From the NCBI GenBank assembly GCA_020350425.1, contig CP070716.1, positions 1,232,564-1,296,563 of the forward strand: DNA of 64,000 nucleotides, given 5' to 3'. Shown piece after piece: positions 21,705-54,604 of this stretch. This DNA is from Gemmatimonadota bacterium. GTDB lineage: Bacteria; Gemmatimonadota; Gemmatimonadetes; Gemmatimonadales; GWC2-71-9. A program made the position numbers and the translations under genes. The notes beneath the pieces are model-generated. The model was not told where the DNA came from and ran no database searches. It saw only the letters and a program-made list of their open reading frames with translations. Positions within the stretch are counted from its first letter, which is position 1; each line of letters starts with the position of its first letter.

Positions 21705-22322
21705 GTGCTCTCCTCCGACGACCGCAAGGCAGCCTTGACGCTCTTGGGCTTGGCGGCGGCCGGCCTCCTGGTCCGGGCGCTTGCAGGTGGCGGCAGTCCC
21801 GCCGGGGCCGTGGCCTATCGGGAGGTGACCGCCGGGCGCCCCGAGCGGGACGCGGTAGCCGAGCAGGCGGCGCGGATGGCGCGCCCGTTGAGCCGCGGCG
21901 AGACGATCGACCCGGACCGTGCGCCCGCAGCGGAGCTCGCCCGATTGCCCCGCATCGGCCCGGGGCTCGCGGCACGCATCGTCGACGATCGGGAGGCAAA
22001 CGGCCCGTTCGGCTCTTTGGAGGAGCTGGATCGCGTGGTGGGTGTGGGGCCGGCCGTGCTCGACGCGGTGCGCCGTCACGTGGTCTTCTCGGCGCCGGCC
22101 GCACGCTCCGCGACGTCCCAAGTGCCCGAGATTGTGACGCTTAACACGGCTTCTGCCCGGCAGCTCGCTAGACTACCCGGCATCGGGCCGGCGCGAGCCA
22201 AGGCGATCGTTGAGGATCGACAACGCCATGGACCGTACCGGCGGCTGGACGAGCTTACGCGGGTGCAAGGTATTGGGCAGGCGACGGTGGAGCGCCTGCG
22301 GGGGCTGGTGCGCGTGCCTTGA
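21705..22322 (+). CDS. comEA: ComEA-like membrane-anchored DNA-binding protein with two tandem helix-hairpin-helix modules
   Basis: N-terminal TM (LTLLGLAAAGLLV). Two copies of L(A/P)RLPxIGPxxAxxIVxDRxxxGP(F/Y)xxLxEL.RV.G(V/I)G. The start codon is uncertain. Confidence 0.7.
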   Translation: MLSSDDRKAALTLLGLAAAGLLVRALAGGGSPAGAVAYREVTAGRPERDAVAEQAARMARPLSRGETIDPDRAPAAELARLPRIGPGLAARIVDDREANGPFGSLEELDRVVGVGPAVLDAVRRHVVFSAPAARSATSQVPEIVTLNTASARQLARLPGIGPARAKAIVEDRQRHGPYRRLDELTRVQGIGQATVERLRGLVRVP

Positions 22323-31712: not shown

Positions 31713-34700
31713 GTGAGACCGCTTCTCTATCTCGTCTTCATCCTGTCCGGGGCTGCCGGCCTCGTGTACGAGTCCATCTGGGCTCGGTACCTGGGCCTGT
31801 TCGTCGGCCACGCCGCATACGCCCAGATCCTCACCATCGGGATATTCCTGGGTGGCATGGCGCTGGGGGCCATGCTAGTGGGCTCCCGTACCGAGCGCCT
31901 GGCGGACCCGCTGCGGTGGTACGCCCTGATCGAGCTGGCCGTGGGAGCGGTGGGGCTCTTCTTCCACGAGATCTACGGTGGCGTGACCGGCTTCGCGTAC
32001 GACACGCTCTTCCCCGTGGTGGGAAACGGCGTGCTCCTCACGCTGACGAAGTGGGTCATCGCGGGCAGCCTGATCTTGCCGCAGTCCATTCTCCTGGGAA
32101 CGACCTTCCCGCTGATGGGCGCGGGAGTCCTCCGGCGCTACGCGGCGAATCCCGGCCGCACGCTGGCCGTCCTGTACTTCGCCAACAGCCTCGGGGCCGC
32201 GGTCGGCGTCGTGATCGCTGGGTTTTATCTCCTTCAGGCGGTGGGGCTGCCAGGCACGCTGCTCGTCGCGGCGATGCTCAACCTGGTGGCGGCACTGGGG
32301 AGCGGCTTCGTCGCCCAGCGCACGCCGCTGCGCGGCGCGGTGCGTGAGCCGGCGCCGGCGCAAGCGATGCCGGTTGCCGTCACAGACGCCGCCGCGTTGC
32401 GACAGCAGCAGTTGGTGCTGCTCCTGCTGGGCGTGAGCTTCGGGACTGCCGTGGCTTCGTTCATTTATGAGATCGCCTGGCTGCGCATGCTCGCGCTCGT
32501 GCTGGGGAGCGCCACGCACTCCTTCGAGCTCATGCTGTCGGCGTTCATCCTCGGTCTCGCGCTGGGCTCGCTCTGGGTCCGGCGGCGTGCCGACCGGTGG
32601 AGCAAGCCGCTTCGTGCCCTGGGTATCGTGCAGTGGGTGATGGGGTTCTCGGCGCTCGCGACGCTTCCGCTGTACGGACAGTCGTTCGCGTGGATGGCCG
32701 ACCTCATGCAGTCGTTTGCCAGAACGGAGGGGGGCTACGAGGGCTTCACGATGGCGCGGTACGCGTTGTGCCTGGCGGTGATGCTGCCGTCCACGTTCTG
32801 CGCCGGCATCACGCTGCCGCTCATCACGCGCACGTTGCTCACCAGCGCCACCGGCGAACGCGCCATCGGCTCCGTGTACGGCGTGAACACGCTCGGGTCC
32901 ATTGTGGGGGTTGCCGTGGCGGGGCTGGTCCTGATGCCGTTGCTTGGGGTGCGGCTGCTTCTGGTGTTCGGTGCGACGCTCGACATGGCGCTCGGCGTGG
33001 GAATCCTCTGGGTAGTAGCCGGCGCGAAGCCCCGCGCTCGGCAACTGGCCTACGGTGCGCTGGCCGCGACCGCACTCGTCACCGTGGTCGTGGCCGCGCA
33101 ACGCGGCTTCGACCGGCGGATGCTCGCCAGCGGCGTGTTCCGCAACGGGCGGTTGGACGGCGAGACGCGTGAGGTGCTCTACTACCGGGACGGTCGTACC
33201 GCCACCGTGGCCGCATGGCGCCATACGGAGAACGGCGTCACGGCGCTCGCCACCAACGGCAAGGTCGACGGGTCGGTGCCGGGGCACTGGCTGGTGGCGT
33301 GCTCGGACTCCACGGTGCGCGAGCCGCTGTACACCGACATCTCCACCCAGACGCTCGCCCCGCTCATTACCCTGGCGCACGCGCCGCGCGCGCGGATCGC
33401 AGCGGTGGTAGGGCACGGAACCGGGATGTCGTCACAGATCATGCTGGCGAACACCGAACTCCAGCGAGTGACGACTATCGAGATCGAGCCGGAGATGCTC
33501 GCCGCCTCTCGCGCCCTGTATCCCACGAACGCGAGGGTCTTCGACGACCCGCGGTCGCACATCGTGATCGAAGATGCACGGGCATTCCTGTCGGCGACGG
33601 AGGAGAAGTACGACATCATTCTCTCCGAGCCCTCCAATCCGTGGGTGAGTGGCGTGGCGAGCCTCTTCACCGGCGAGTTCTATCGCCGGATCGCGCAGTC
33701 GCTGGCGGAGGGCGGCGTGTTCGGCCAGTGGATCCATCTCTACGAGCTGAACGACGGCCTCGTGATGAGCGTCATCGCCGCGGTGCACCGGACGTTTCCC
33801 TCCTATGAGGTCTTTCTGACGGCGCGGGGAGACATGCTGATCGTGGCCGCCGCCTCGGAGAGCCTGCCGGCTCCCGATTGGTCGATTCTCGAGTGGCCAG
33901 CGATTCAGGAGGACTTCTGCCACGCCGTGGCGCCGACCGCGGAGATGATGGAGGCCACGCGGCTGACGCACAGGACGGTGTTGGCGGCGCTGCTCGACGG
34001 CTGGCAGCAGCCGAACTCCGACTTCTATCCGGTGCTCGACCTCGGTGCGGAGCGCGCGCGGTACCAAAACCAATACGCTCGAGGGGTCGGCGATCTCGCG
34101 ACGCGGCGAATCGATATCGCCGCGGCCATCTCGCTGCGTCGTGTGCAGCCGATCGCCGCCGGCGCGATGCCGTTGACCGACGTTCCTCGGGTGCAGGCGC
34201 TGGTCCTGGCGGGTGCCCTTCGCGATGCCCGGGCGGGTGACGGGGTGGACACCGCGGTCACGCTCGCCGGCCTCGAAGACGCCCGGTTCCGCCAGCTGCG
34301 GTGGGACGCCATCCTGGGTGCAGACGATCCGCCTACGGATTGGAGGCGCTGGCTCGGGGAGCTATTGGCGGTGGAGCGGGATCGGCACGGCGGCACGTAC
34401 GGCTACATCGACGAGTCGCTGCTGCAGCCGGCGCTGCGGTACCTCGATCGGCACGACGCGCCCGCCGAGGCGCGTTGGGTGGTGGACTTCTACTTCGGGC
34501 TTGCCGGGTGGAACTTCGGGGTGGCCGCCGCCGCCGCCGACGCCCTGTTCCAGGCAGGGGCGCAGGATGGCGGCTGGATCTCTCGGGAGGATCTCGCGGA
34601 GGGGGGCGTGATCGCGAAATTGCGGACCGGAGACGTGGCTGGCGCCCGGCACCTGTATGATGAATTGACGTCAGACGTCGCGGATCGGGAGCGGTACCTC

Positions 34701-34757
34701 CGCCTGCAGCTCCTCGACGCCTATCTGCATGTCTTCTCGAACGGACCCGCGCGATGA
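31713..34757 (+). CDS. Fused polytopic membrane domain / spermidine-synthase-like (class I SAM-MTase fold) protein with extra C-terminal domain, 1014 aa
   Basis: GTG 31713 lies 8 nt after pilR, after AAGGAG. About 480 aa of TM helices, then [10 protein letters not shown]...[25 protein letters not shown] (spermidine synthase-type core), then ~300 aa unassigned. Confidence 0.7.
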
Positions 34758-35521
34758 GCCTTCGACGACGGAGAGAGCACTACCGCGCCGTACCCCTCCC
34801 GGATGACTGGAACGACCTCGTGGTGACCGCGGTCGTGCCCGCGTTCAATGAGGAGCACACGATCGAGCAGAGCCTGCGGCGGATCCGGGAGGTCCCGCTG
34901 AGGGTCGAGATCGTCGTGGTGAACGACGGATCGTCCGACCGCACGGGGGAGGTCCTCGACCGGCTCGAGCAGGAGGGGCTTGTCGACCGCGTCATCCATC
35001 AGCCCAAGAACAGGGGCAAGGGGGCCGCGGTGCGCGCGGGGATCGCGGCGGCCACGGGACACGTGATCGTGATCCAGGATGCCGACCTCGAGTACGATCC
35101 GATGGAGTACCCGACGCTCCTCGAGCCGATCAGGCTCGACCGGGCCGATGCGGTGTTCGGTTCCCGGTTCCAGTCTGGGCCGCGGCGGGTGCTGTACTTC
35201 TGGCACTCCGTGGGAAATCGCTTCCTCACGCTCCTCTCCAACATGCTCACGGACCTGAACCTCACCGATATGGAGACCTGCTACAAGATGGTCCGCGCCG
35301 ATCTCATGAAGGCGCTGCCGCTCGTCTCCAAGCGCTTCGGGATCGAGCCGGAGCTCACCGCCCGACTGTCGCAGGCGGGCGCTCGCATCTGGGAGGTGCC
35401 GATCAGCTACAGCGGGCGTACGTACGCCGAGGGCAAGAAGATCGACTGGCGGGACGGCGTCGCCGCCATCTGGCACATCCTGCGCTTCAACTTCTTGCCG
35501 TCACGACCGAAGACGCGGTGA
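34754..35521 (+). CDS. GT2 glycosyltransferase, polyprenyl-phosphate sugar synthase-like (DPM1/GtrB/ArnC type)
   Basis: ATGA overlap with the upstream gene. VVPAFNEE...[11 protein letters not shown]...NRGKGAAV...DADLEYDP. Confidence 0.8.
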
Positions 35522-37518
35522 CGCGAACGCTCACGCAGGTGCTGTGGCGAGGGCTCGGGGTCGCGATCCTCGTCCTGCCCCTGCTCAGCATCCCGCGGTG
35601 GGTGGACGCACCGGATCCCGGTCCCGACTGGAGTGTGCACCTGCGGGCGTGGCTGATCGGCGCCTTCGTGGTGCTGGTGGTGGGTCTGGCGGTGGGCTGG
35701 CTGGCCCGGACGGCACAGCCGCGCGCACGCGCCTGGCCGGCGTGGGGCGACGCGGCGTTCGTCGGCGGGATGGCAGTGCTGCTCACACTCGCGGCAGCCT
35801 ACACGATGCGGGTGGCCTTTGCCTCGAATCCGCATCTCGTGGACGAGGTCGCGCAGCTCTTTCAGGCACGGGTCTTCGCCTCGGGGCGCCTCGCGGCGCC
35901 GCCTCCGCAGCTGCCTGAGTTCTTCCTGTTCACGCACACCTGGATCACCCAGGCCGGATGGGTCTCGCAGTTCCCGCCGGTACATGCCGTGGCGCTGGCA
36001 GCCGGCATGCTGGTTCGCGCGGAGTGGCTGGTGAATCCCGTGGTGGGCGGCGCCAGCGTGGTGCTCGTCTACCTGGTGACCCGCGGCATGTTCGGCTCGG
36101 GCACGGCCCGCGTGGCGGCAGGTCTGTGGGCGGTCTCGGCGTGGGTGCTCTTCATGTCGGCCACGTACATGAACCACGCGCTTGCGGTCGCCCTGGTGCT
36201 CGGGGCGTGGGCCTGTGTCTGGGCGCCGGGCGGGAGACGCGTCGTCCGCTTCGTCGCGGCCGGAGCGTTGCTCGGGGCTGCGGCCGCGACGCGGCCGCTC
36301 GACGCCGTCGCCGGTGCGCTTCCGCTACTGGTACACCTGGGCCTGGCCCGCAGGCCACGGGACCTCGGACTGCTGGTGCTCGGCGGCGTCCCCATGGCAC
36401 TGGCCCTGGGCTACTACAACTGGCGCCTCTTCGGTGGGCCGCTCGACTTCGGGTACACGGCGCTGTGGGGGGAGGGGCACCAGCTGGGCTTCCACGCCGA
36501 CGCATGGGGCTACGAGTACACGCCGCTGGTGGGCCTGAGCAACATGGTGGCGGCGATCCGCCGGCTGCATATCTACCTGTTCGAGTGGCCGATCCCCGCC
36601 CTGCTGCCGCTCGGCTTGTGGGCGCTGTTCGCGCGCCGACGGGAGCCCGCCGATCTCGCCCTCGGGCTCGGGGTCGCCGCGGGGCCCGCCCTCTACTTCT
36701 TCTACTGGCACTCGGGCTTCTATCCCGGTCCGCGGTTCTACTTCATCGCGGCCCCGTTCCTGGTCATCGGCACGGCCCGGGCGCTCCGTTGGGCCTGGCT
36801 CGCGGCCCGCAGCCGGGCGGACGCCCACCTGCGCTGGGACGTGGCGCTCGCCGCGCTGTGCGCGGGGGTGCTGCTCTGGAGCTGGGTCGACATGCTGCCG
36901 CGGCGATTCGAGGTCTACCGGACGGGGTTGCCGTCGCTCAAGTACCACCCCGAGCGCAGTCTGGCCGAGCGAGGGGTGCGGCAGGCGCTGGTGCTGGTGC
37001 CGGAGAGCTGGGGGGCCCGGATCATCACGGACCTCTGGGCGCTCGGGGCTCCGCCCGGCGTGGTCGAGCGCGTCTACCGCAGGCTCGACGCGTGCGACCT
37101 CCACCTCTTTGCCCGGCAGGCCCGGGCCGAGGCGCTGGCGCCCGCAGGTGTGATCGACAGCCTGGAGCGGCGCTACGCCGCCGCGGCCGCGGCGGCACCA
37201 CTTGTGGCCGGGTCGCGCGATCCCACCCTGCGGCTCTGGCCGGGCCGCGCACTCGATCCGAGGTGCGCGGTGCAGCTTGAGCACGACCGGGGTGGGTTCA
37301 CGCTCTACGGGAGCCTGGCCTGGCGCAACCCGGTGGGGCTCCGCACGGGCATCGTGTTCGCCCGCGATCGGTACGCGCGGAATCGGCAACTCTTTGCCGA
37401 GTACCCTGGTTGGGAGGTGTGGCGCTTTGCCCCGCCGGCCGGGGAGCCCGATGCCCGACCGCAGCTGCGTCGCCTCGGCCTGGCCGAGGAGCTTGGCGAC
37501 GATCGGCAACTCCCGTGA
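35518..37518 (+). CDS. GT-C-like (ArnT/PMT-type) polytopic membrane glycosyltransferase candidate, 666 aa
   Basis: GTGA overlap. About 10-12 TM helices. Acidic motif in the first predicted external loop ([12 protein letters not shown]). About 250-aa soluble C-terminal domain. Confidence 0.5.
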
Positions 37519-39450: not shown

Positions 39451-39503
39451 TAGAACCCCCATAAGTGCTTGTCACGAAGCATGTTAGGCACTTGGGAGAG
39501 GTC

Positions 39504-39518
39504 TGGCACGGGGATTGC
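39504..39518 (+). promoter_or_regulatory. Sigma54 (-24/-12) promoter of the major pilin gene
   Basis: TGGCAC-gggga-TTGC fits the TGGCAC-N5-TTGC consensus exactly. Lies 86 nt upstream of the pilA ATG. A PilR-type activator is encoded in the locus. Confidence 0.7.
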
Positions 39519-39603
39519 TTCAGTATCTGGACAGATCAAAGCGCCCAGGTATGCCACGTGGGCACCGGGCTGTCACTCGAATACCATCCGCGGAGGTGTA
39601 TTG

Positions 39604-39987
39604 ATGAATCGCAAGGGCTTCACCCTGATCGAGCTTCTGATCGTGGTGGTGATCATCGGCATTCTGGCTGCCATCGCTATCCCGAAGTTCGCGAACACGA
39701 AGGAGAAGGCGTATCTCGCGTCGATGAAGGCCGACCTGCGTAACCTGGTGAACGCGCAGGAGAGCTACTTCGCCGACTGGACGACCTACGCCGCTGCCGG
39801 CGCCGGTGGGTTCACGTACAACCAGTCGGCCGGCGTGACCATCGCTGTCGGGGCCGTCGCCGGTGACGGTTGGGACGCGACCGCGACGCACACGGGTGCG
39901 CCGACCAAGACGTGCGCCATCGCCGTGGGCTCGGGGACGAACAGCGTCAAGGGAACGGCTGCCGAGGGCGAGCCGGCCTGTAACTAG
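39604..39987 (+). CDS. pilA: Type IVa major pilin (PilA-like), copy 1
   Basis: MNRKG|FTLIELLIVVVIIGILAAIAIP: short leader, Gly-1, Phe+1, Glu+5. C-terminal Cys...Cys loop (TKTC...EPAC N). The 5' part of ORF 39469.. is not coding. Confidence 0.9.
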   Translation: MNRKGFTLIELLIVVVIIGILAAIAIPKFANTKEKAYLASMKADLRNLVNAQESYFADWTTYAAAGAGGFTYNQSAGVTIAVGAVAGDGWDATATHTGAPTKTCAIAVGSGTNSVKGTAAEGEPACN

Positions 39988-40067: not shown

Positions 40068-40478
40068 ATGGTGAGGACGCGCCCCATGCATAGCGACGCG
40101 CGAGGGTTCACCATCATCGAGCTCCTGATCGTCGTGGTGATCATCGGGATTCTGGCTGCCATCGCGATCCCCAAGTTTGTGAACACCAAGGAGAAGGCGT
40201 ACATGGCGTCGATGAGGTCGGATCTGCGCAACCTCGCGACGTCGCAAGAGGGGTACCTCCACGACTTCTTCACGTACGGCACGCAGGCGGACATGGTACC
40301 GCCGCGGTTTCAGGCGTCATCCGGTGTGACCGTGACGATCACCGGCGTGAGTCCCGCGGGCTGGCAGGCTACCGCGCAGCACAGCCTGGCTCCCACCAAG
40401 GTCTGTGCGATCTTTTACGGCTCGGGTGCCGCGCCCATACCCCCCGCGACCGACGAGGGTGAGGTGGCCTGCAACTAG
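40068..40478 (+). CDS. Type IVa pilin paralog, copy 2
   Basis: ...HSDARG|FTIIELLIVVVIIGILAAIAIPKFVNTKEKAY. Same C-terminal architecture (TKVC...EVACN). An alternative ATG at 40086 would give a 7-aa leader. Confidence 0.85.
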   Translation: MVRTRPMHSDARGFTIIELLIVVVIIGILAAIAIPKFVNTKEKAYMASMRSDLRNLATSQEGYLHDFFTYGTQADMVPPRFQASSGVTVTITGVSPAGWQATAQHSLAPTKVCAIFYGSGAAPIPPATDEGEVACN

Positions 40479-43095: not shown

Positions 43096-44145
43096 ATGGC
43101 GATTCTCGGGCTCGGTGGCGCAAAATCGACGGTCGCCCTGGACATCGGCAGCGGGCTCCTCAAGCTGGTCGAGGTCGACCACAAGAAGGGCGACCCGGTC
43201 CTGAGCCGGGTGGCGGTCGCGCCCGTTCTGGCGGACGCGATCGTCGAAGGCGAGGTCATGGACCCCGATATCGTAGCCGACGCGATCCAGGGACTGTTCA
43301 GGACCTCCGGCATCAAGCAGAAGCAGGTGGTGGTGGCGGTCGGCGGTCGCGACGTGATCATCAAGAAGATCCAGGTCGACCGCATGAAGGAGAGCGACGC
43401 GTACGAGGTGGTGCGCTGGGAGGCCCAGCAGCACGTGCCGTTCGACATCGAGGCGGTGGAGCTCGACTTCCAGATCCTGGACCCCGACGGCGAGGGGCTC
43501 CAGATGGATGTGCTCCTGGTGGCAGCCAAGCGGGACCTGGTGGAGGACAAGCTCCAGCTTCTCATCCAGGCCGGTTTGGAGCCCGCCATCGTGGACGTGG
43601 ATGCCTTCGCCCTGCACAACGCCTTCGAGCTGAACTACCCGGAGGCGATGAACGGTGTCGTTGCCCTTCTCAATATCGGGCATGAAGTAACCAACGTGAA
43701 CATCCTGCTCGACGGAGTGCCGCTGCTGACCCGGGACCTGAGCGTCGGGACCCGGAAGTTCCGCGAGGACCTGCAGCGGGAGCGGGGCATGTCGGCCGAC
43801 GATGCAGATCACTTGCTCCAGGGATACGAGCTCACGCCCGACCTGGAGCCCTACGTCAAGAACCGGGGCGAGGAGATGTCCGTGGGGTTGGAGCGGGCCG
43901 GAGCCTTTCTCCAGACCGCAGCCCGGGACGCCGGACCGCTGCAGAGGGTCTACTGCTGCGGCGGTGGTGCCAGGATTCCGGGGCTGTCCGACGTGCTCGG
44001 CGAACGCCTCCGCCTCCCGGTGGAGATCGCCAGCCCGCTGCAGCGGATGCGGGTGAAGGATCATGTGTTCGACACGCTCAACGCCGACGAGATGGGGCCG
44101 CTGCTGATGCTCGCGACCGGCCTCGCGCTCAGGCGGCGGGGCTGA
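43096..44145 (+). CDS. pilM: Type IV pilus assembly protein PilM (actin-like ATPase fold)
   Basis: VALDIGSGLLKLVEV..., EAQQHVPF, VDVDAFAL, GGGARIPGL motifs. 349 aa. Confidence 0.9.
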   Translation: MAILGLGGAKSTVALDIGSGLLKLVEVDHKKGDPVLSRVAVAPVLADAIVEGEVMDPDIVADAIQGLFRTSGIKQKQVVVAVGGRDVIIKKIQVDRMKESDAYEVVRWEAQQHVPFDIEAVELDFQILDPDGEGLQMDVLLVAAKRDLVEDKLQLLIQAGLEPAIVDVDAFALHNAFELNYPEAMNGVVALLNIGHEVTNVNILLDGVPLLTRDLSVGTRKFREDLQRERGMSADDADHLLQGYELTPDLEPYVKNRGEEMSVGLERAGAFLQTAARDAGPLQRVYCCGGGARIPGLSDVLGERLRLPVEIASPLQRMRVKDHVFDTLNADEMGPLLMLATGLALRRRG

Positions 44146-44164
44146 GCGTCAGGGGAGCAGGACT

Positions 44165-44842
44165 ATGAGGATCGAGATCAACCTGCTCGGGGGGCCGAGG
44201 AAGAAGGCCGGCGCCGGCATTTCTCTTCCCAACATCGGCGAGCTGATCAAAGGGGTCAAAGATCCCCTGCTGCTCGGCGCCGTCGCGGCCTGGATCGTGG
44301 TAGGAGCTGGGGCGGGCTACCTCTTCGTCACCATGCAGGCCCAAGTCACCGGCCTGCGCGACGAAGCGACGCAGGCACGGCAGGAGGCCCGTCGGTTCTC
44401 AAACATGATCGGGCAGAAGCGGCGAGCCGAGCAACTGCGCGACTCCCTCGAAACGGAATTGCGGGAGATCCGTGCCATCGATTCGGACCGCTATATCTGG
44501 CCCCACGTTCTGGAAGAGGTGACCAAGTCGTTGCCCGACTACACTTGGCTCGTGGGTCTCAACATGGTGCAAGCGGCGCCGGCGGTGACCACGGAGGGCC
44601 AACCGGTCGGACCACAGCCTGTGCGGTTCATGATCGACGGACGCACCTCCGACATCGGGGCGTACACGCGGTTTCTGCGGAATCTGGCCAATTCGCCTTG
44701 GGTCGCGAATGTCGTACCGGGTGCCAATCGGACGGTGGTGGAGGATGACAAGGCGCTGACGGCCTTCAGCATCACGGCCACATTCCGACAGGCGGATTCG
44801 TCTTTCATGCGGACCGTTCCGGTCTCCGCATCGGTGCGCTAG
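44165..44842 (+). CDS. pilN: Type IV pilus assembly protein PilN
   Basis: N-terminal MRIEINLLGG (INLL motif), single TM, coiled coil. Position after pilM. Confidence 0.85.
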   Translation: MRIEINLLGGPRKKAGAGISLPNIGELIKGVKDPLLLGAVAAWIVVGAGAGYLFVTMQAQVTGLRDEATQARQEARRFSNMIGQKRRAEQLRDSLETELREIRAIDSDRYIWPHVLEEVTKSLPDYTWLVGLNMVQAAPAVTTEGQPVGPQPVRFMIDGRTSDIGAYTRFLRNLANSPWVANVVPGANRTVVEDDKALTAFSITATFRQADSSFMRTVPVSASVR

Positions 44843-44851
44843 GGAGGAGTC

Positions 44852-45457
44852 ATGGCACTCTCCCAGAAGGATCGGCAACAGCTCCTCGTGCTGCTCATCA
44901 TCATCGCTGCCGCCGGCGGCGGGGCGTTCTGGTATCTCTGGCGGGCGCCGCAGGCAGCGGAGATCGCGCAGCTCGAGATCGAGATCGACTCGCTGCGGGC
45001 GACGGTGGACTCGGCCAGGCGGGACCTGGCCTCGGGAACGGTCGAAAGCCTGCGGCAGCGCGTGGCAGACTACGAGGCCAGTCTCGGGCTCATGCGCCGC
45101 CTCGTCCCGCTGGAGAACGAGGTGCCGAGCCTGATCGACGACATCGCGTCACGGGCCACGCTCCGAGGGGTCCATATCCAAGAGATCAACCCGCAGTCTG
45201 TTGATGCCGAGGGGATGTTCGATACGCACCGCTACCGGGTAAGCGTCGTGGGCCATTACGACGAGATCGGCGAGTTCCTGGCCGACGTGGCCTCGCTCCC
45301 CCGGATCATGGTGCCCTATGAGCTGACGCTGGGGATCGCTCCCCTGACAGCCCAGGTTGCCTACGGGGATACCACGGGCGCTCTGCTGCAGGCGCAGTTC
45401 CAGCTGCGGACGTTCGTGAAGCCGCCGGCCACGGGAGGCAGCGGTGAGACACAATAA
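44852..45457 (+). CDS. pilO: Type IV pilus assembly protein PilO
   Basis: Single TM (LLVLLIIIAAAGGGAFWY), coiled coil, ferredoxin-like C-domain. Position. Confidence 0.8.
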   Translation: MALSQKDRQQLLVLLIIIAAAGGGAFWYLWRAPQAAEIAQLEIEIDSLRATVDSARRDLASGTVESLRQRVADYEASLGLMRRLVPLENEVPSLIDDIASRATLRGVHIQEINPQSVDAEGMFDTHRYRVSVVGHYDEIGEFLADVASLPRIMVPYELTLGIAPLTAQVAYGDTTGALLQAQFQLRTFVKPPATGGSGETQ

Positions 45458-45947
45458 GGAGTTGGTCTGGATCCTGGCGTGCGTGGGCACGGTCGCGGTC
45501 GGCTGTGGAGCCGAGGAACCGCCACCGCCGCCGGTGAGCCAGGTGGAGGCCGGGCCCGCTGCTCCAGCAGCCGGCGATCCGGCGATGGAGCTGCAGGCTG
45601 TGGAGCCCCAACAGGAACGCGTGGAGCTCCAGCGCGAGGTGTTCTCCTACGGCGGGTCGGGACGTGACCCGTTCATCTCGTTGCTGCGGTCGGGCGACGT
45701 CCGGCCGCTGCTGGAGGACCTGCGGGTCACCTCGATCAACTACAACCCGCGCTATCCCAGCAGCAGCGTGGCCGTGCTGCGTGACACGACGGTCGGACAG
45801 CGGTACACGGTACGTGTGGGGGACGAAGTGGGTCGGCTGCGGATCGCGGAGATCCGCCAGACCGAGGTGCTCGTGATCATCGAGGAATTCGGCGTCGAGC
45901 GGCAGCGGACACTGGCACTGCGCCGCAGGCAGGAGGAACTACCATGA
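45444..45947 (+). CDS. pilP: PilP-like lipoprotein
   Basis: Lipobox AVGC, Pro-rich linker, RDPF motif, beta-rich C-terminus. Overlaps the pilO end and the pilQ start (ATGA). Confidence 0.65.
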   Translation: MRHNKELVWILACVGTVAVGCGAEEPPPPPVSQVEAGPAAPAAGDPAMELQAVEPQQERVELQREVFSYGGSGRDPFISLLRSGDVRPLLEDLRVTSINYNPRYPSSSVAVLRDTTVGQRYTVRVGDEVGRLRIAEIRQTEVLVIIEEFGVERQRTLALRRRQEELP

Positions 45948-47761
45948 GGCGGTCTCTGATACTCGCGCTCGCCGGGCTCGCCCTGGTCGCGCCCCACGCT
46001 CTCGCGACGGAGCCGGGCGAGGTCAACGCGGTGAGCGTGTTGCCCGGTGCGGGCCGTGCCCACGTCGTGATCGACGTCTGGGGCAGTGTCTCCGTCCAGG
46101 ACTTCACACTGCAGAATCCGGCGCGCCTCGTCATTGACGTGCTCGGAGCAACGCTCAACGCCCCGGCGCTGGTCTACGACGGGCAGAACCGCGGCGGCAT
46201 TCTGAACATCCGCTATGCGCAGTTCCGGCCCGACGTGGTCCGTATCGTCCTCGAGTTGGACGAGCTCAAGGATTACCAGCTCGAGTACGCGGACGATGCC
46301 ATTCGGATCACCTTGGGTACCGATCGCGGCTTCGCGGCGTGGTCCTCCAGCGCTCCTGCCCAGTACGCCGTACAGGGTGGACAGCAGATGTTCTCGCCGG
46401 CTCGCGTGGTGCCGCCCGTGGCGGCCGCCGCGCCGACCCCGTTCCAGTCGCAGCAGCCGACCGTGACGGCGTCGTTCGATTCCGCCACCATCGCCGACGT
46501 GATGGCCGGGTTTGCCGAGCTCTCCGGCAAGAGCATCGTCCTCGGCAAGGATATCGAGGGCTACGTCACGGCCGACATCCGCAACCAGCCCTGGGACATC
46601 GCGTTCCAGGTGGTGCTCGAGTCGCAGGGGCTGGACGCGATCGAGGACCCGCCGGGGATCATCCGCGTGGACTCGCGCGCCGCCTTGCTGGCCCGCGACT
46701 CCACCGAGCCCACCGAGACGCGGATCGTGACGGTCAACTACGCCCGCGCCTCCTCGCTCGTGCCGGTCGTGCAGACGATCCTGACGCCCGACCGCGGCCG
46801 CGTGGTGGCCGACACCGGCACCAACAGCCTCATCATTACGGACATCCGCAGCCGCCTACAGGAGGACGTCGATTTCGTGCGGCAGCTCGACGTTCAGACG
46901 CCGCAGGTGTCGATCCAGGCCAAGCTCATCTTCGTGAACCGGAGCAACATCGAAGAGCTCGGGGTGCAGTACGACATCGGGAGCCCGAGCCAGTTCTTCA
47001 ACACCCTCGTCTCCCGGCCCGATCCGCGCACGAACCAACCGGTCGACATCGACGGTGACGGTGTGCCGGACGCCGTGGCGCCGACCGACTTCTTCGATCC
47101 CACGGAAACGCCCAGCATCGTGGACCTGGGCGGCAACCAGCTCTCCGCCATCGCCAATGCGGAGGCGCAGATCCTGAGTCCGGCGCTCGAGCTCATCTGG
47201 TCGACCGCGATCGGGAACTTCAGCGTTACGGCCTTCGTCAGTGCCCTGCAGCGGGTGGAGCTAGCGGACCTGCAGGCCGAGCCCCTGACCTCCACGGCCG
47301 ACAATACCGAGGCGTACATCCTGGTGGGTGAGCGGACGCCGGTCCGCGTGGTGGACGTGAGCGCGCAGGCCCAGCAGGCGCAGGCCACCGTGGACTACGT
47401 TGAGACGGGCGTCAAGCTTCGGGTGACTCCGCACGTCACGAGCAACCGTCAGGTGCTGATGTCGGTGCACGCGGAAAACTCGTCCATCCAGGCGGCCCCC
47501 TCCGACATCGGCTTCACGTTCCAGACCCAGGAGGCGCAAAGCCAGATCCTGGTTGATGATGGCCAGACGGCCGTGATCGGCGGGCTCACGGTGACTTCGG
47601 TCACGGTATCCAAGAGCGGAATACCGTTTCTTGTAGACCTGCCGGTCATAGGTGGCCTCTTCGGCTTCACGCAGCGTGAGGAAACGCGCCAAGATCTGTT
47701 GATCCTGGTCACGCCGCACATCATCGACAATCCGGCGGCGATGGCCGAGGAGGCCCGCTAA
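45944..47761 (+). CDS. pilQ: Type IV pilus secretin PilQ
   Basis: AGGAGG RBS. Signal peptide ...PHALA|TE. AMIN domain (RLVIDVLGATLN), N0/N1 domains, secretin core (GIPFLVDLPVIGGLFG...LLILVTPHII). Confidence 0.9.
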   Translation: MRRSLILALAGLALVAPHALATEPGEVNAVSVLPGAGRAHVVIDVWGSVSVQDFTLQNPARLVIDVLGATLNAPALVYDGQNRGGILNIRYAQFRPDVVRIVLELDELKDYQLEYADDAIRITLGTDRGFAAWSSSAPAQYAVQGGQQMFSPARVVPPVAAAAPTPFQSQQPTVTASFDSATIADVMAGFAELSGKSIVLGKDIEGYVTADIRNQPWDIAFQVVLESQGLDAIEDPPGIIRVDSRAALLARDSTEPTETRIVTVNYARASSLVPVVQTILTPDRGRVVADTGTNSLIITDIRSRLQEDVDFVRQLDVQTPQVSIQAKLIFVNRSNIEELGVQYDIGSPSQFFNTLVSRPDPRTNQPVDIDGDGVPDAVAPTDFFDPTETPSIVDLGGNQLSAIANAEAQILSPALELIWSTAIGNFSVTAFVSALQRVELADLQAEPLTSTADNTEAYILVGERTPVRVVDVSAQAQQAQATVDYVETGVKLRVTPHVTSNRQVLMSVHAENSSIQAAPSDIGFTFQTQEAQSQILVDDGQTAVIGGLTVTSVTVSKSGIPFLVDLPVIGGLFGFTQREETRQDLLILVTPHIIDNPAAMAEEAR

Positions 47762-47778
47762 GCGGCGGAGGCAGGGCT

Positions 47779-50277
47779 ATGCACAAGTCGACCTTCTGGA
47801 AAGGCGCCGCCGCGGCGGCGATGGTCCTCGTCGCGGCCGGCTGTAACGAGGCGGCACTTGCACCGGGCGTGACGCAGGACTTCATCCCGCCCAGTGTGAG
47901 CATCGCGAAGTTCGGCACCAGCGACACGGTCCTCATCGAGAACGGCCTCAAGTTTTCGGTGACAGCCGCTGACAACCTGGGCCTCAAGAACATCACGGTG
48001 CAGCTCGAAGGTGGCGTCGTCGCGACGATCGATTCCACGTTCAATAGCCAGGTGACGGGGATCACAATCCCCGTCGACGTCCAGTTTGCCTCGGGGAGCG
48101 TTGCGGGGGGGTGGGTCAGGATCAGCGCGCAGGCGGTGGACGGCGCGCTCAACGGCGCCACCGCCCTGGACTCGATCTACCTGAAGAACGCCGCTGCCCT
48201 GATCGTCACGCTGCTCAACCCGAGCGAGGGCGCCATCACCTCGGCCGGCAAGGATCTGCTGGTGCGGGTGCGGGCCACCCAGCGGGACGGGATCAAGCGG
48301 GTGGGGTACCTGTTCAGCGGCGTCATCGCGGGCGGCGATTCCTCCGGCACGAAGCAGCTGGCCCTGCCCGACGACACCACGTTCGTGGATACGCTCACCA
48401 TCCCGGCCAATGCGCCGGTGGGCGTCTTCACGATCACGGGATTCGCCGTGGACTCGGCCGAGCGACGGGGGCTCAGCAACCCGGTGACCGCGAACATCCA
48501 ATCGGTGGTCACGGACACCGACCCGCCGATCGTGAGCTTCCAGATCGGCGCGCGGGTGGAGGTGGACGACACCATCACGGTGAACGCGACCGACCCGAGC
48601 GGCATCACACTGATCGGGTGGACCGCGGTGACGCTGGCCGGTGACACGGTGAAGAACGAGTCGCGCACGTTGGCCGGTAATCTGACCGACGTCACCGAGA
48701 AGTGGGTGGTCGGGTTCAGCTTCACGACCCTGCCACAACCCGTGATCATCTCGGCGTATGCGCAGGACCTCGCCGGGAACTTCGGGACCTCGGCGACCAG
48801 TCCCGCGCCCCCAGCGGGGGCGGGGATCGCGGCCGCGGCCGCAGCCGCAGCCGCCGGTGTGGACACCGTGCTCGTCGTCTTCGGGGTGACCACGCCGCTG
48901 CCGTCGGGCGGGCAGATCGCGGACGCGATCTACAACCGCAACCTGAACGAGGTGTACCTCACCAACGTCGCGCTGAACCAGGTCGAGATCTTCCAGGTCG
49001 TGGACACGACGTTCGCGGATGCGGTCCCCGTCGGCTCGAGTCCCTGGGGGCTCGCCCTGTGGCCACGCAACACCGCGGGCGATCACGACGACACGGTGGT
49101 GGTGGCAAACTCGGGCGGGACGAACTTCTCGATCGTCAACATGCAGAGCCGGGTCGAGGAGCGGCGACACCATCTGCCCAACTTCCTGATCCAGAGCGTG
49201 CAAACTGAGATCGACGGGGCAACCGGGAACGTCAAGCTCAAGATCATCGAGTACGATTTCACCGACCGGCCGGAATACGTGGGGATGACCTGCATTCCTA
49301 GCGGCGGCCCCGGCACCGCGTGTCTGTCCGACCAGATCTTCGCCGTCTATTCGACGACGCCAACGGTCTCCCAGCCGGGCGGGCCCGTGGATTTCGTGGA
49401 GCGCGGCACCGTGCGGTGGGAGAACCTGACCTCCGCGACGCCCGAGTCCCACTTCTTCTGGGAGCAGGCGGCGGTGGCGCCCAACCCCGACGCCGATACG
49501 CTACAGGTCTGGGTGGACCGGGGTCCGGGAACGACGACGGAGCTGCTGCTCTCGGCGGCCTGCGGCCACATGGTGAACATGGCGGAGCTCGCGTTCCTCG
49601 ATACCACGTTCGTGCGCAACTCGGGCGACTTCACGCACGCGCTGATTGGTGAGGCCGGATCCAGCGCGGAGCCGCCGAACGGCTTCGCCCGCGTGATCGG
49701 CTACAACCGCCTGACGGGGCACGTGACGAATCCGTGCCCGCCGATCATTATCGAGGGCGTGACGTTCGCCGGCAACGAGATCATCGACAACGGCATCTCG
49801 CCGGCCCTCAGGGTGCGGGACTTCATTGTCAACACGGGCATTCCGGTCAAATCCATCGCCCTCAACTTCAACGGGCTCACGAACCTGGTGCGGGCCGACT
49901 CCATTTACGTGCTCGACGAGGGCCTGCGGCTCATGGGGTTGATGAGCATCGGGAACGTCAATGCGGGCATGGACATGAACTTCGATCACGACTTCGACGC
50001 GCGCACGCGCACCAGCGGGTCGGGCACGTCGAGCGACCGCTTGGTGTTCGCGGCGGGCGACGATCCGGTGATCGAGGTGTTCGACACGTACTGGTACGAC
50101 AAGATCGCGGTGATCCCGGTGCGCGATCCCATTACCGGGCCGCTGCGGGTGTCCGAGAACGCCGCGACGGGTGAGCAGATCCTGGTGGGCGTGACGGGCT
50201 CCGGCGTGGTGACCGTCGCCGTGCCGACCATCACGAACCCCCTGCCCGCTCCGGGCTTCAACTGGCCCAACCGGTAG
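47779..50277 (+). CDS. Lipoprotein with three Ig-like repeats, poly-Ala linker and putative beta-propeller domain (function unknown)
   Basis: Starts 17 nt after pilQ. Lipobox LVAAGC. Repeats beginning DFIPPSVSI / LIVTLLNPSEG / TDTDPPIVSF. AAAAAAAAAG linker. Propeller-like blades (NEVYLTNVALNQVEIFQVV..AVPVGSSPWGLALWP..VVVANSGGTNFSIVNM). Confidence 0.6.
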   Translation: MHKSTFWKGAAAAAMVLVAAGCNEAALAPGVTQDFIPPSVSIAKFGTSDTVLIENGLKFSVTAADNLGLKNITVQLEGGVVATIDSTFNSQVTGITIPVDVQFASGSVAGGWVRISAQAVDGALNGATALDSIYLKNAAALIVTLLNPSEGAITSAGKDLLVRVRATQRDGIKRVGYLFSGVIAGGDSSGTKQLALPDDTTFVDTLTIPANAPVGVFTITGFAVDSAERRGLSNPVTANIQSVVTDTDPPIVSFQIGARVEVDDTITVNATDPSGITLIGWTAVTLAGDTVKNESRTLAGNLTDVTEKWVVGFSFTTLPQPVIISAYAQDLAGNFGTSATSPAPPAGAGIAAAAAAAAAGVDTVLVVFGVTTPLPSGGQIADAIYNRNLNEVYLTNVALNQVEIFQVVDTTFADAVPVGSSPWGLALWPRNTAGDHDDTVVVANSGGTNFSIVNMQSRVEERRHHLPNFLIQSVQTEIDGATGNVKLKIIEYDFTDRPEYVGMTCIPSGGPGTACLSDQIFAVYSTTPTVSQPGGPVDFVERGTVRWENLTSATPESHFFWEQAAVAPNPDADTLQVWVDRGPGTTTELLLSAACGHMVNMAELAFLDTTFVRNSGDFTHALIGEAGSSAEPPNGFARVIGYNRLTGHVTNPCPPIIIEGVTFAGNEIIDNGISPALRVRDFIVNTGIPVKSIALNFNGLTNLVRADSIYVLDEGLRLMGLMSIGNVNAGMDMNFDHDFDARTRTSGSGTSSDRLVFAAGDDPVIEVFDTYWYDKIAVIPVRDPITGPLRVSENAATGEQILVGVTGSGVVTVAVPTITNPLPAPGFNWPNR

Positions 50278-50310
50278 CGAGACGGCGAGAGGCCATCCAC
50301 CGAGCACTCG

Positions 50311-50341
50311 GAGCCCGGCCCTGCGGCCGGGCTCTCTTTTT
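50311..50341 (+). terminator. Rho-independent terminator closing the pilMNOPQ-lipoprotein unit
   Basis: GAGCCCGGCC-ctgc-GGCCGGGCTC (10-bp perfect stem) followed by TCTTTTT. Confidence 0.75.
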
Positions 50342-50376
50342 CAGGGCGGCGGCCCGTAGGATAGATTAGTCGCGAC

Positions 50377-51576
50377 ATGATCCGCTTCACGACAGCCGGT
50401 GAATCGCACGGCCGCGGCCTGGTGGCCGTGGTCGAGGGCGTCCCCGCGGGACTGCCGCTGCGGGCGGAGGACATCGACCTCCAGCTCACGCGGCGCATGG
50501 CGGGACACGGGCGGGGTGCGCGCATGAAGATCGAGTCCGACGCCGTGGAGTTCCTGAGCGGTGTGCGGGCCGGCGAAACGATCGGCTCACCGGTCGCGAT
50601 GGTGATCTGGAATCGCGACTGGGAGAACTGGACGGACGTGATGGCGCCTGAGCCCGACGAGGAGGGTGCCGCGCGCCGCCGCCGGGTGTCGCGGCCGCGT
50701 CCGGGTCATGCCGATCTGGTGGGTGTGCTGAAGTACTCCCGGCGCGACGCGCGCGACATTCTGGAGCGAGCGAGCGCTCGGGAAACCGCGGCCCGCGTCG
50801 CCTGCGGCGCCGTGTGCCGGCGCCTGCTGGCCGAGTTCGGCGTCGAGATCGGAAGCCATGTGGTGGCGCTCGGCGCCGTGCGGGCGCCGGAGCCGAGCGC
50901 GCTGCCCGTTCCCCTCAATGATGCCGCCGATCAATCGCCGGTGCGTTGCCTCGATCCCGAAGCCTCGCAGGCGATGGTGGACGCCGTGGACGCCGCTGCG
51001 GCCGACCGGGACACGCTGGGTGGCGTGGTGGAGGTGGTCGCCCGGGGCGTGGTGCTGGGCCTCGGCTCGCACACGTCGTGGGATCGCCGGCTCGACGGCA
51101 GCTTGGCGCGGGCGGTGATGTCCATCCCCGCCGTGAAGGGCGTGGAGATCGGCGCGGGGTTTGGCAGCGCGGCGGTGCGCGGCTCCGTGGCCCACGACGA
51201 GATCGTCGAGGGCGGCCCCCCGAGAAGCGGCGGCTTCGCCCGTCGCAGTAACCGTGCGGGAGGTCTCGAGGGCGGCATGACCACGGGCGAGCCCGTCGTG
51301 CTTCGGGCGGCAATGAAGCCGCTCTCGACGCTGCGGCGCCCGCTCGACACGGTGCACCTCGAGACGGGAGAGCCGGCCAAGGCGCAGTCCGAGCGCTCCG
51401 ACGTGACCGCCGTGCCGGCCATGGGCGTGGTAGCGGAGGCCATGGTGGCGCTCGTGCTCGCCCGGGAGATGTGCGAGAAGTTCGGTGGTGATTCCCTGGT
51501 CGAGATGCGACGAAACTACGATGCCTACCTCGCCTGCATGCGCCCGGGCGGCGAAGAGGTCGGCCGCAGCGAGTGA
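50377..51576 (+). CDS. aroC: Chorismate synthase
   Basis: MIRFTTAGESHGRGLVAVVEG.PAG..., RPGHAD, SARETAARVA, GGLEGGMTTGEP motifs. Confidence 0.9.
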   Translation: MIRFTTAGESHGRGLVAVVEGVPAGLPLRAEDIDLQLTRRMAGHGRGARMKIESDAVEFLSGVRAGETIGSPVAMVIWNRDWENWTDVMAPEPDEEGAARRRRVSRPRPGHADLVGVLKYSRRDARDILERASARETAARVACGAVCRRLLAEFGVEIGSHVVALGAVRAPEPSALPVPLNDAADQSPVRCLDPEASQAMVDAVDAAAADRDTLGGVVEVVARGVVLGLGSHTSWDRRLDGSLARAVMSIPAVKGVEIGAGFGSAAVRGSVAHDEIVEGGPPRSGGFARRSNRAGGLEGGMTTGEPVVLRAAMKPLSTLRRPLDTVHLETGEPAKAQSERSDVTAVPAMGVVAEAMVALVLAREMCEKFGGDSLVEMRRNYDAYLACMRPGGEEVGRSE

Positions 51577-52091
51577 CACGGCATCTCGTGCTGGTCGGGC
51601 TGTCCGGCTCCGGGAAAACGGCTGCCGGGCGACTCGCGGCCGCCGCTCTCGACGCTCCCTTCCACGACATCGACGCTCTTATAGAGGAAAGGGAAGACGT
51701 CTCGATCAGCCGCATCTTCGCCGAGCGCGGCGAGGAGGCGTTCCGGCAGCTTGAGCGCGAGGCGGTACGGCGAGCGCTGGAGGGGATGCCGGCGGTCATT
51801 GCCCCGGGTGGAGGGTGGGCGGCCCAACCGTGGAGTGCGGAGGACGCGGCCGACCGGGCGATCCTCGTCTATCTGCGGACCAGCCCCCAGGTTGCTGCGG
51901 CGCGCGTGGCGCGCGAGGGGAACCGGCCGCTGCTCGAAGGCGTTGACCCGGTCGAGCGGCTACGGCAGCTCCTAGAGGAACGGGAGGCTGCCTACCTGAC
52001 GGCGCCCCTGCTGGTCGAGACCGATGCGAGGACGGTCGAGGAGGTGGCCAGCGAGCTGGTCGCGCTTGCGCGATCCAGAGCCGGGTGGTAA
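51573..52091 (+). CDS. aroK: Shikimate kinase
   Basis: GTGA overlap with aroC. LVGLSGSGKTAAG P-loop, FRQLEREAV, GGG motif. 172 aa. Confidence 0.85.
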   Translation: MTRHLVLVGLSGSGKTAAGRLAAAALDAPFHDIDALIEEREDVSISRIFAERGEEAFRQLEREAVRRALEGMPAVIAPGGGWAAQPWSAEDAADRAILVYLRTSPQVAAARVAREGNRPLLEGVDPVERLRQLLEEREAAYLTAPLLVETDARTVEEVASELVALARSRAGW

Positions 52092-52237: not shown

Positions 52238-54604
52238 ATGCCGAAGACCGCAAAGAAAGCGAAGCAATCAAAGACGGCGGTCAAGAAGGAGACCGCACGG
52301 AAGAAGTCCGCCAAGAAGTCGCCTGCCAAGAAGTCACCCGCCAAGGCGCGCGGCAAGGCTCTCGTCGTGGTCGAGTCGCCCGCCAAGGCCCGCACCATCG
52401 GCAAGTACCTGGCCTCAGGCTACACGGTGAAGGCGACCGTGGGGCACCTGCGCGATCTGCCGCAGCGCGAGCTCGGGGTGGACGTCGAGAACGGATTCGC
52501 GCCGAAGTACGTCACGATCCGCGGCAAGGGCAAGCAGCTCGCCGAGATCAAGCGAGCGGCCAAGACGTCCTCGGCCGTGCTGCTGGCCACCGACCCGGAC
52601 CGGGAGGGCGAGGCGATTGCCTGGCACGTCGCGGAGCAACTCGGCGACGGGTCCAAGATCCGACGCGTGCTGTTCCACGAGATCACCAAGGACGCCATTA
52701 CCCAGGCGATCCACCGGCCGGTCGAGATCGACGGGCAGAAGGTCGAGGCGCAACAGGCCCGACGCATTCTCGACCGCCTGGTCGGATACAAGGCGAGCCC
52801 GCTGCTGTGGCGGTCGGTGAAGCGCGGCCTCTCCGCCGGTCGCGTGCAGACGGTGGCGTTGCGGCTCATCGTGGAGCGGGAGCAGGCGATCCGCGACTTC
52901 AAGCCGCAGGAGTACTGGTCCATCGAGGCGGAGCTGGAGGCGAAGCGGAAGCGCTTCACGGCAAAGCTGCTGAAGGTCGAGGGCACGAACCCCTCGCTGC
53001 ACAACAAGAAGGAAGCCGACGCCGTCGTGCGCGCGGTCAAGGGCCAGCCGTTCGTGGTCAGCGCCGTCGCGAAGAAGCAGCGGCGCAAGCGTCCCGGGGC
53101 CCCCTTCATCACGAGTACACTGCAGCAGGAAGCGGCCAAGCGGCTCGGCTTCTCGGCGAAGCGGACGATGCGTGCCGCGCAGCAGCTGTACGAGGGGGTC
53201 GAGATCGGCAAGGAGGGCGCCGTCGGTCTGATCACGTACATGCGTACCGACTCGCCCCGCGTGGCCCCTCAGGCGATCGATGCTGTCCGCGAGTTCATCG
53301 CGGCGCATTACGACGACCGCTACCTGCCTGAGAAGCCCAACCTCTACCGGACGAAGAAGGCGGCGAGGGCACAGGAGGCGCACGAAGCCATCCGTCCGAC
53401 GGACGTCGACCGCCGCCCCGATTCGGTGCGGAAACACCTGGGCCCCGACCAGTACAAGCTCTATCGCCTCATCTGGCAGCGGTTCGTCGCGTCCCAGATG
53501 ACGCCGGCGGTGTACGACACCACTGCGATCGACTTCGAGATCAAGAAATACCTGTTCCGGGCCACGGGTTCGGTCATGGTGTTCGACGGATTCCACGTGC
53601 TCTACTTCGATACGAAGGAAGCCGGCGAGGAGGAGACGTTCGAGGATCTGGCCCCCGTGCCCGCGTTGGCGAAGGGCGATGAGGCGGCCGTGAAGGGAAT
53701 CACTCCGAACCAGCACTTCACCGAGCCGCCGCCGCGGTTCAGCGAAGCGAGTCTCGTGAAGGAGCTCGAGGCCGACGGAATCGGGCGGCCCAGCACGTAC
53801 AGCTCGATCATCTCGACGTTGCGGGATCGCGGCTACGTGAGCATGGAAAGCCGACGCTTCCATCCGACCGACCTGGGTGAGACCGTGACGAAGGTGATGG
53901 TGAGCCGCTTCCCCGACATCTTCAACGTCGAGTTCACGTCGCAGATGGAGACCGAGCTCGACAAGGTGGAGGAGGGCGAGCTGGGGTGGCAGCAGGTGCT
54001 CCAGGATTTCTACGGTCCCTTCTCCAAGGCGCTGGACTCGATCGACCCGGCGGCGCTCATTCGCGAGGCGCACGACGTCGAGGAGATCGAGAAGGAGCCG
54101 TGCCCCGAGTGTGGCGGGAAGCTCACGGTGAAGAGCGGCCGCTTCGGTCCCTTCATCGCCTGCACGAAGTACCCCGAGTGCCGCTACACGAAGCCGCTCA
54201 AACGCGACAAGGTGCCCGACAAGCCCACCGATGAGGTGTGCCGGGAATGCGGCGCACCGATGGTCATCAAGACGGGCAGGTATGGGGAGTTCCTCGCCTG
54301 CACCAAGTACCCTGAGTGCAAGCACACGCGTCCCATCCCGCTGGGCGTCACGTGTCCGAAGTGCGGTGAGGGCGACATCGCGCAGCGCCGCACGCGTCGC
54401 GGGCGCTCCTTCTACGGCTGCACGCGCTACCCTGATTGCGACTTTTCGACGTGGCACTTTCCGGTGCCCGAGACGTGTCCGGAATGCGGGTTCGTCGGTG
54501 CGGAGAAGCGCTCCACCAAGGCGCGCGGCGAGTATCGTCGCTGCCTCAAGTGCGAGAGTGAGTTCGAGGCCCAGGAGGCCGTCTCTGACGTAGCGGGCCA
54601 GTGA
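52238..54604 (+). CDS. topA: DNA topoisomerase I with Lys-rich N-terminal tail and four C-terminal zinc ribbons
   Basis: [23 protein letters not shown]. Active-site region YMRTDS. CPECGG/CxxCG zinc-ribbon repeats x4. 40-aa KKSPAKK-type tail before TOPRIM. Confidence 0.9.

Follow-up and report, generated by a model that had tools for sequence, protein, structure and literature searches.

The question raised by the locus described here is why, in Gemmatimonadota, the type IV pilus genes pilMNOPQ are followed at very short distance by one further gene, and which function its product may have next to a secretin. The locus is part of a stretch of 64,000 nucleotides from a Gemmatimonadota bacterium (assembly GCA_020350425.1, contig CP070716.1, positions 1,232,564 to 1,296,563 of the forward strand), the whole of which is called the window throughout and from the first letter of which all positions are counted. 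The working name X is used for both gene and protein of the plus-strand open reading frame 47779..50277, which encodes a predicted lipoprotein with a stalk of immunoglobulin (Ig)-like domains and a beta-propeller head. An earlier description made from the letters and open reading frames of the window (the sequence-only reading) had suggested that X is co-transcribed with pilQ and that it could be a novel secretin-associated or pilus-tip component. The analysis reported here points to X as an accessory lipoprotein at the PilQ end of the Gemmatimonadota type IV pilus machine, likely located to the outer membrane, a reading which derives from gene linkage and for which the chances appear evenly balanced.

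In the window, 17 nt separate the pilQ stop (47761) from the start of X, and the GGAGG found 7 nt upstream of the X start codon (47767-47771) corresponds to the own ribosome binding site which the sequence-only reading had assigned to X. Its further claim, namely that the first terminator-like hairpin of the pilM-Q unit occurs only after X, holds for the plus strand between 42500 and 52500, where two overlapping terminator-like calls were obtained, both of which represent one and the same hairpin (50310-50335), and no other. This hairpin comprises 11 pairs (9 of them G-C) and a loop of 4 nt, is followed by CTTTTT and was identified as the dominant stem in local folding; comparison with Rfam revealed nothing real for it (CC0196 sub-threshold, E 0.24). 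A sigma-70 promoter scan of 42.5-52.5 kb gave zero plus-strand sites, even upstream of pilM, and is hence uninformative on an internal promoter. X therefore shows what is expected from a member of the pilMNOPQ operon, i.e., same strand, short junction, conserved position and no terminator in between.

The conservation of this position was followed by tblastn of the window genes against 80 genome loci, the X relatives of which are 80% to 39% identical to X; together with 10 more distant places of 25-35% identity, 90 related loci (numbered with the prefix L) were inspected. Wherever the flank suffices, the order pilM-N-O-P-Q-X was found in 80 of 80 genome loci. In most of these, aroC-aroK-topA come next in the same orientation as X; aroC-aroK are absent between X and topA in three loci. 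Seven distant members, sharing 25-35% identity with the window protein, occupy the identical place next to pilQ; one of the distant members stems from a Longimicrobiaceae assembly and two reside on megabase-scale contigs, and the adjacency is kept across two classes of Gemmatimonadota. Conservation next to pilQ in relatives, which had been named as a check, was thus found in all 90 loci with flank, down to this level of identity. The gap between pilQ and X has a median of 26 nt and does not exceed 58 nt in 72 of the 75 measurable loci, and in some loci, e.g., L085, both genes overlap by 4 nt. Between X and aroC, a spacer of approximately 80-340 nt is located, which in 73 of 86 loci contains a hairpin of the type CCCGRY...RYCGGG; the same motif was found at the pilQ-X junction in 2 of 87 loci and occurs once in the entire window. 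At the variable pair of this hairpin, 20 loci have G-C, 38 have A-T and 11 have G-T, whereby the compensatory exchange of G-C and A-T supports a selected stem. Considering the short junction with pilQ and the hairpin behind X, it is reasoned that X belongs with pilQ and that the unit ends after X.

Among the window and the X-aroC spacers of L002-L084, the stem GAGCCCGRCC...GGYCGGGCTC was found to be nearly constant though the encoded proteins are just 40% identical, and in one large clade the tail GTGTTATTATC replaces the T-run. Both observations suggest that the hairpin may be more than a plain terminator; it could, e.g., contribute to the promoter or leader of aroC. The syntenic block reads pilMNOPQ-X-aroC-aroK-topA-trmFO-xerC-hslVU and is conserved even in Longimicrobiaceae. 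The shikimate-pathway genes aroC-aroK following pilMNOPQ-X, both in the window (43096-52091) and in most related loci, recall the order pilMNOPQ-aroK-aroB known from Pseudomonas and Neisseria. In L088 (4134-7238, a 5.78-Mb metagenome contig) pilM, pilN, pilO and pilP were called as fragments; all four are intact in the near-identical L089, hence the fragments probably arose from assembly or frameshift errors and not from decay.

The N-terminus of X (MHKSTFWKGAAAAAMVLVAAGC) carries the lipobox VAAGC with Cys22, and most relatives likewise have a cysteine in a lipobox-like context, as do both halves of split genes. With a signal peptide and the lipobox proposed earlier in place, X is predicted to be a signal peptidase II substrate and hence a lipoprotein. 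Modelling of the full-length protein with AlphaFold2 (AF2), based on a 27-sequence alignment, yielded a mean predicted local distance difference test score (pLDDT) of 81.7 and a predicted template modelling score (pTM) of 0.70; when residues 361-832 were modelled alone, a pLDDT of 87.3 and a pTM of 0.89 were obtained, with 34 strands corresponding to 7 or 8 blades. The stalk had been described as three Ig-like repeats of approximately 90 amino acids (aa), each opening with a PP(S/I)VS motif. Three beta-sandwich domains are indeed present in the AF2 model, but they are no sequence repeats (BLASTP E 1.1 and 0.052), and the motif opens domains 1 and 3 but not domain 2. For the window protein the match of PF17957 (Big_7) is borderline (24.0 bits vs a cutoff of 24.1 bits); 21 of 32 relatives match this family with a best E of 3.9e-13, and judged from these profiles the X family clearly has a Big_7 domain. 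The run of nine alanines reported between the Ig part and the propeller is present (residues 351-359, nt ~48829-48855) and falls into a linker, of which residues 341-360 are disordered and of low confidence in the AF2 model. The propeller possesses a net charge of -26 and a pI of 4.5 as well as three conserved cysteines (C505, C515 and C653), which fit an extracytoplasmic location.

Conservation statistics were derived from 77 sequences as identity to the window protein. For the propeller the mean identity is 54%, with 94 of 464 columns conserved to at least 95%; the Ig domains reach 42-45% with 0-7 such columns each, and the linker 28%. X is a genuine gene subject to selection, and the propeller is far more constrained than the stalk. 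The latter ranges from one to roughly eight Ig domains, with proteins of 607 to more than 1400 aa: one length class (~607-656 aa) combines one Ig domain with the propeller, a second (~800-870 aa) has three Ig domains, a third comprises ~910-1150 aa, and forms of ~1270-1410 aa and more carry extra Big_7 and DUF4625 domains. In the short forms of 607-618 aa, Ig-like domain 3 is the sole one kept. One clade (L024, L027, L029 and L031) shows fission of the gene; in L027 (9941-12888), which was read in detail, a 364-aa lipoprotein with three Ig domains starts 15 nt past pilQ and is overlapped by 4 nt by the gene for a 618-aa lipoprotein consisting of one Ig domain and the propeller, each protein having its own lipobox.

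The propeller appears to be an orphan at the sequence level. Among 32 members searched at E up to 1, Pfam assigned no family to it, all matches being to Ig families within the stalk, with DUF4625 and Big_3_3 matching the stalk of long forms; only faint matches of PF10282 (Lactonase) are on record, in Longimicrobiaceae-type members. A search of NCBIfam (E up to 0.01) left X without a family, and in a profile search of the Protein Data Bank (PDB) sequences the best E was 0.07, with Lp49 from Leptospira (3bws) as a weak match (E 0.21). Foldseek comparison of the full-length model with the PDB produced multi-domain artefacts (tandem WD40, complement C3 and Ig arrays) with template modelling (TM) scores of 0.10-0.25, which is why the propeller was modelled and searched separately. 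The propeller itself matched generic propellers only, such as WDR5 (TM 0.70, normalised by target length) and G-beta proteins; the Methanosarcina S-layer protein 1l0q, a YVTN propeller with PKD domain, ranked seventh (E 2.5e-10, modest TM of 0.42/0.50), and no pilus, BAM or Tol protein was among the top 50 fold matches. Of the YVTN/YncE-like propeller postulated earlier, the resemblance in fold is thus supported by Foldseek, while membership in the family is not, as Pfam and NCBIfam returned nothing and the YVTN repeat profile (TIGR02276/COG3391) does not recognise X. DNA binding in the manner of YncE from E. coli, which automated protein names suggest, is unlikely considering the acidic propeller. 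A calcium loop was considered for residues 732-740, the D-x-N-x-D-x-D-x-D motif of which recalls propeller calcium loops, but is not claimed, as the motif lacks conservation: of 77 sequences, only 25 have Asp at position 9, and 61 have D or N at position 5.

An initial protein search identified 650 relatives of X, the named organisms of which are all Gemmatimonadota (one of them Longimicrobiaceae) or unassigned entries ("bacterium", e.g., bacterium HR33). Their labels are generic and automated ("hypothetical", "YVTN family beta-propeller protein", "YncE family protein", "Ig-like domain-containing protein"), and one of them, "predicted RNA-binding protein with TRAM domain", is spurious. An exhaustive profile search gave 2048 clusters at E up to 1e-3, the weaker of which may be Ig-only matches, and 312 clusters at E up to 1e-30; in a genome scan, a relative was found in at least 243 species-representative genomes. 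As far as these searches indicate, the family is restricted to Gemmatimonadota. Cluster look-ups of family members revealed no cultured isolate carrying X.

Among known partners of the secretin, PilF, Tgl and TsaP are usually encoded away from pilQ, while X lies directly behind it. With the pilotins PilF/PilW/Tgl, X has in common that it is a predicted lipoprotein, that it is genetically linked to the secretin and that it is proposed to act at the outer-membrane end; the latter two points also apply to TsaP, which is not a lipoprotein. The domains differ, as the pilotins are built from TPR repeats, whereas no TPR family was found in any X member and the AF2 model is all-beta; TsaP combines LysM and FlgT-like domains, and neither was matched in X. 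PilY1/PilC shares the C-terminal propeller with X but possesses a plain signal peptide instead of a lipobox and derives from a different operon; neither PF05567 nor vWA was found in 32 family members at E up to 1, and no PilY1 chain appeared in the PDB sequence search (E up to 1) or among the top 50 fold matches. The notion that the architecture is unlike that of known pilQ partners is therefore upheld, X having no TPR, LysM, vWA or PilY1 domain. The logic of beta-sandwich plus propeller is found in 1l0q and Lp49; both, as well as YncE, are surface or periplasmic proteins, none of which is linked to pili and none of which matches X significantly in sequence. BamB of the BAM complex and PorE of type IX secretion are outer-membrane lipoproteins whose propeller docks on a large machine, a likeness to X which is architectural only: the BamB propeller is eight-bladed and PQQ-like, while X has no PQQ-type Pfam match, no BamB chain was found in the PDB sequence search or among the top 50 fold matches of the X propeller, TPR and OmpA_C domains are not matched in X either, and X belongs to another machine. 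PorE is reported to combine its propeller with an Ig-like CRD domain (PMC12773672).

The pilus cluster of the window is complete, encompassing a comEA-like gene, pilB, pilT, pilC, pilS, pilR, two pilins, minor pilin-like genes and pilMNOPQ, and no gene for a TPR pilotin, TsaP or PilY1 was found in the window. Together with the phylum-wide coupling to pilQ, this favours an accessory role of X at the PilQ end. According to the suggested mechanism, X would be the sixth gene of the pilMNOPQ operon in Gemmatimonadota, and the lipidated protein would be anchored in the outer membrane, since the lipobox Cys is not followed by Asp (E. coli rule). Here, the Ig domains may serve as spacer or stalk of variable length and the propeller as working head binding to a conserved partner, for which PilQ itself or the fibre leaving the secretin is favoured. 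X could then stabilise, position or assist the secretin, a role which pilotins or TsaP have elsewhere; its description as secretin-associated is what we infer from gene order. As a tentative extension, which we regard as rather unlikely in this specific form, X may be a hitherto unrecognised structural subunit, specific to Gemmatimonadota, of the outer-membrane complex in type IVa pili, whereby copies of it would crown PilQ peripherally at its periplasmic or outer face, replace the pilotin/TsaP functions of proteobacterial and myxobacterial systems and be needed for the secretin to assemble or the pilus to extend.

Several points weigh against an accessory role of X at PilQ. The genes aroC-aroK-topA-trmFO-xerC-hslVU are equally syntenic, hence the adjacency to pilQ is partly frozen synteny and, taken alone, weak evidence. 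In a mirror-tree/partial-Mantel analysis, a partial r of 0.46 (p ~0.001) was obtained for propeller and PilQ, but that for propeller and TopA (0.45) is of equal size, thus the covariation with PilQ is not specific. With 85 kDa, an Ig stalk and a propeller, X is unlike any known pilotin, and a stalk varying from one to about eight Ig domains fits a periplasmic partner of fixed geometry poorly and a surface protein better. Furthermore, the sorting rule applied to X is borrowed from E. coli, and a literature search found no description of the X family.

That X is a co-expressed surface adhesin or surface-layer-type lipoprotein, with an Ig/PKD-like stalk bearing the propeller head, which acts on its own in attachment, aggregation or substrate binding is an explanation which we consider unlikely, though to be taken seriously. 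It draws on the fact that the closest architectures, 1l0q and the weakly matching Lp49, are those of surface proteins, that the length of the stalk is free (1, 3 or up to ~8 Ig domains, with DUF4625 in some forms) while the head is kept, and that the linker is flexible. However, adhesin heads usually evolve fast, and the head of X is its most conserved part, with 20% of its columns nearly invariant across the phylum; moreover, X has stayed closely coupled to pilQ, in some loci by overlap, across a divergence as deep as the phylum, and surface exposure of lipoproteins in Gemmatimonadota would have to be assumed. If X were unrelated to pili altogether, i.e., a propeller protein of the periplasm or outer membrane, perhaps an enzyme, its adjacency to pilQ would reflect a block frozen since the origin of the phylum. 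Such an origin would fit the unspecific covariation with PilQ and finds a parallel in aroC, aroK, topA, trmFO, xerC and hslVU, which are unrelated to pili and nevertheless keep their order, and the many invariant charged residues of the propeller (R, D, E and H) would fit an active site. We hold it to be improbable, as the comparison of the two neighbours of X revealed a difference, the junction with pilQ being at most 58 nt and free of the hairpin, whereas hairpin and 80-340 nt precede aroC, and as Pfam, NCBIfam and the PDB sequence search identified no enzyme family.

The pilus-tip role considered by the sequence-only reading, according to which X would be a functional analogue of PilY1, i.e., a tip adhesin carried with minor pilins, has to be regarded as very improbable. 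The propeller is C-terminal in both proteins, no PilY1 gene was seen in the pilin region of the window, and the motif at residues 732-740 bears a likeness to propeller calcium loops; but this motif is not conserved, X would be membrane-anchored by its conserved lipobox, the gene resides within pilMNOPQ and not among the pilin genes, approximately 5 kb away, and the searches for PF05567, vWA and PilY1 chains were negative as given above. An accessory function of X at the PilQ end of the machine is the reading that we favour.

The features on which this account is based are compiled in Table 1. Regarding the neighbours of X, PilQ scored 229.9 bits against TIGR02515 (NCBIfam), which is under the cutoff of 284.35 bits, and the lipoprotein encoded in pilP position gave no match in Pfam.

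Table 1. Features of the X locus and of its flanks in window coordinates.
Feature	Position	Strand	Basis
pilM	43096..44145	+	PF11104 PilM_2, E 6e-64; TIGR01175
pilN	44165..44842	+	PF05137 PilN
pilO	44852..45457	+	PF04350 PilO
pilP-position lipoprotein	45444..45947	+	between pilO and pilQ; lipobox VAVGC; conserved in related loci
pilQ secretin (AMIN, N0, Secretin_N, Secretin domains)	45944..47761	+	PF00263, E 1.6e-41; PF11741; PF03958
GGAGG, Shine-Dalgarno-like	47767..47771	+	7 nt 5' of X ATG; read from sequence
X, predicted 832-aa Ig-stalk and propeller lipoprotein	47779..50277 (stop codon included)	+	open reading frame list; ATG start; uninterrupted translation
X: predicted signal peptide and lipobox, residues 1-22, Cys22	47779..47844	+	translation; Cys recurs in relatives
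X: Ig-like beta-sandwich 1, residues 39-136	47893..48186	+	AF2 strands, pLDDT 72-87
X: Ig-like beta-sandwich 2, residues 142-240, Big_7-like	48202..48498	+	PF17957, 24.0 bits; AF2 model
X: Ig-like beta-sandwich 3, residues 251-337	48529..48789	+	AF2 pLDDT 83-94
X: low-complexity Pro/Ala linker with nine-Ala run	48790..48864	+	pLDDT <50 for residues 341-360; 28% mean identity in relatives
X: beta-propeller head, residues 363-826, acidic	48865..50256	+	pLDDT 87.3, pTM 0.89; Foldseek WD40/YVTN
GC-rich hairpin and T-run, terminator-like	50310..50341	+	3' of X; present in 73/86 loci
aroC	50377..51576	+	Pfam search; downstream of X
aroK	51573..52091	+	Pfam search; downstream of X
topA	52238..54604	+	Pfam search; downstream of X

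Further genes of the window concern the pilus itself or the cell surface. The proteins encoded by two tandem pilin genes (39469-39987 and 40068-40478) hardly differ in their N-terminal halves (GFTLIELLIVVVIIGILAAIAIPKF...), both end in ...ACN and seem to be paralogous major pilins. Immediately 5' of pilB lies a gene (21705-22322) for a ComEA-like helix-hairpin-helix protein, an arrangement which hints at a possible function of the pilus in DNA uptake. Between pilC and pilS, a polyphosphate kinase 2 gene is located (26940-28418). Three genes occupy the region from pilR to the pilins (31713-37518), and their products might modify pilins or the surface: a membrane protein of 1014 aa resembling spermine synthase, a glycosyltransferase of family GT2, and a polytopic membrane protein of 666 aa for which Pfam gave no match. 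Finally, a 2040-aa protein (14606-20728) matches SprA_N of the type IX secretion translocon, and on this basis the organism seems to carry a type IX secretion system besides type IV pili.

Type IV pilus machines are commonly treated as a conserved core, consisting of PilMNOPQ, ATPases and pilins, to which few lineage-specific outer-membrane helpers are added, the latter being known almost only from Proteobacteria and Myxococcus. What is described here would be a type IVa pilus operon to which an accessory gene from an undescribed family has been added; its linkage is unusually clean and phylum-wide, and its function is deduced from this linkage. Throughout a phylum of abundant soil bacteria, an additional pilQ-coupled gene is retained, the propeller of which falls into no described family. 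The practical value of X is modest for now, and these organisms are little studied. If X is only a co-expressed surface protein, it nevertheless represents a conserved, unnamed family of more than 300 sequence clusters which deserves a name. If X is indeed a component of the machine, Gemmatimonadota would have found a different solution for assembling or supporting the secretin, and X would serve as a marker gene for the pilus loci of this phylum.

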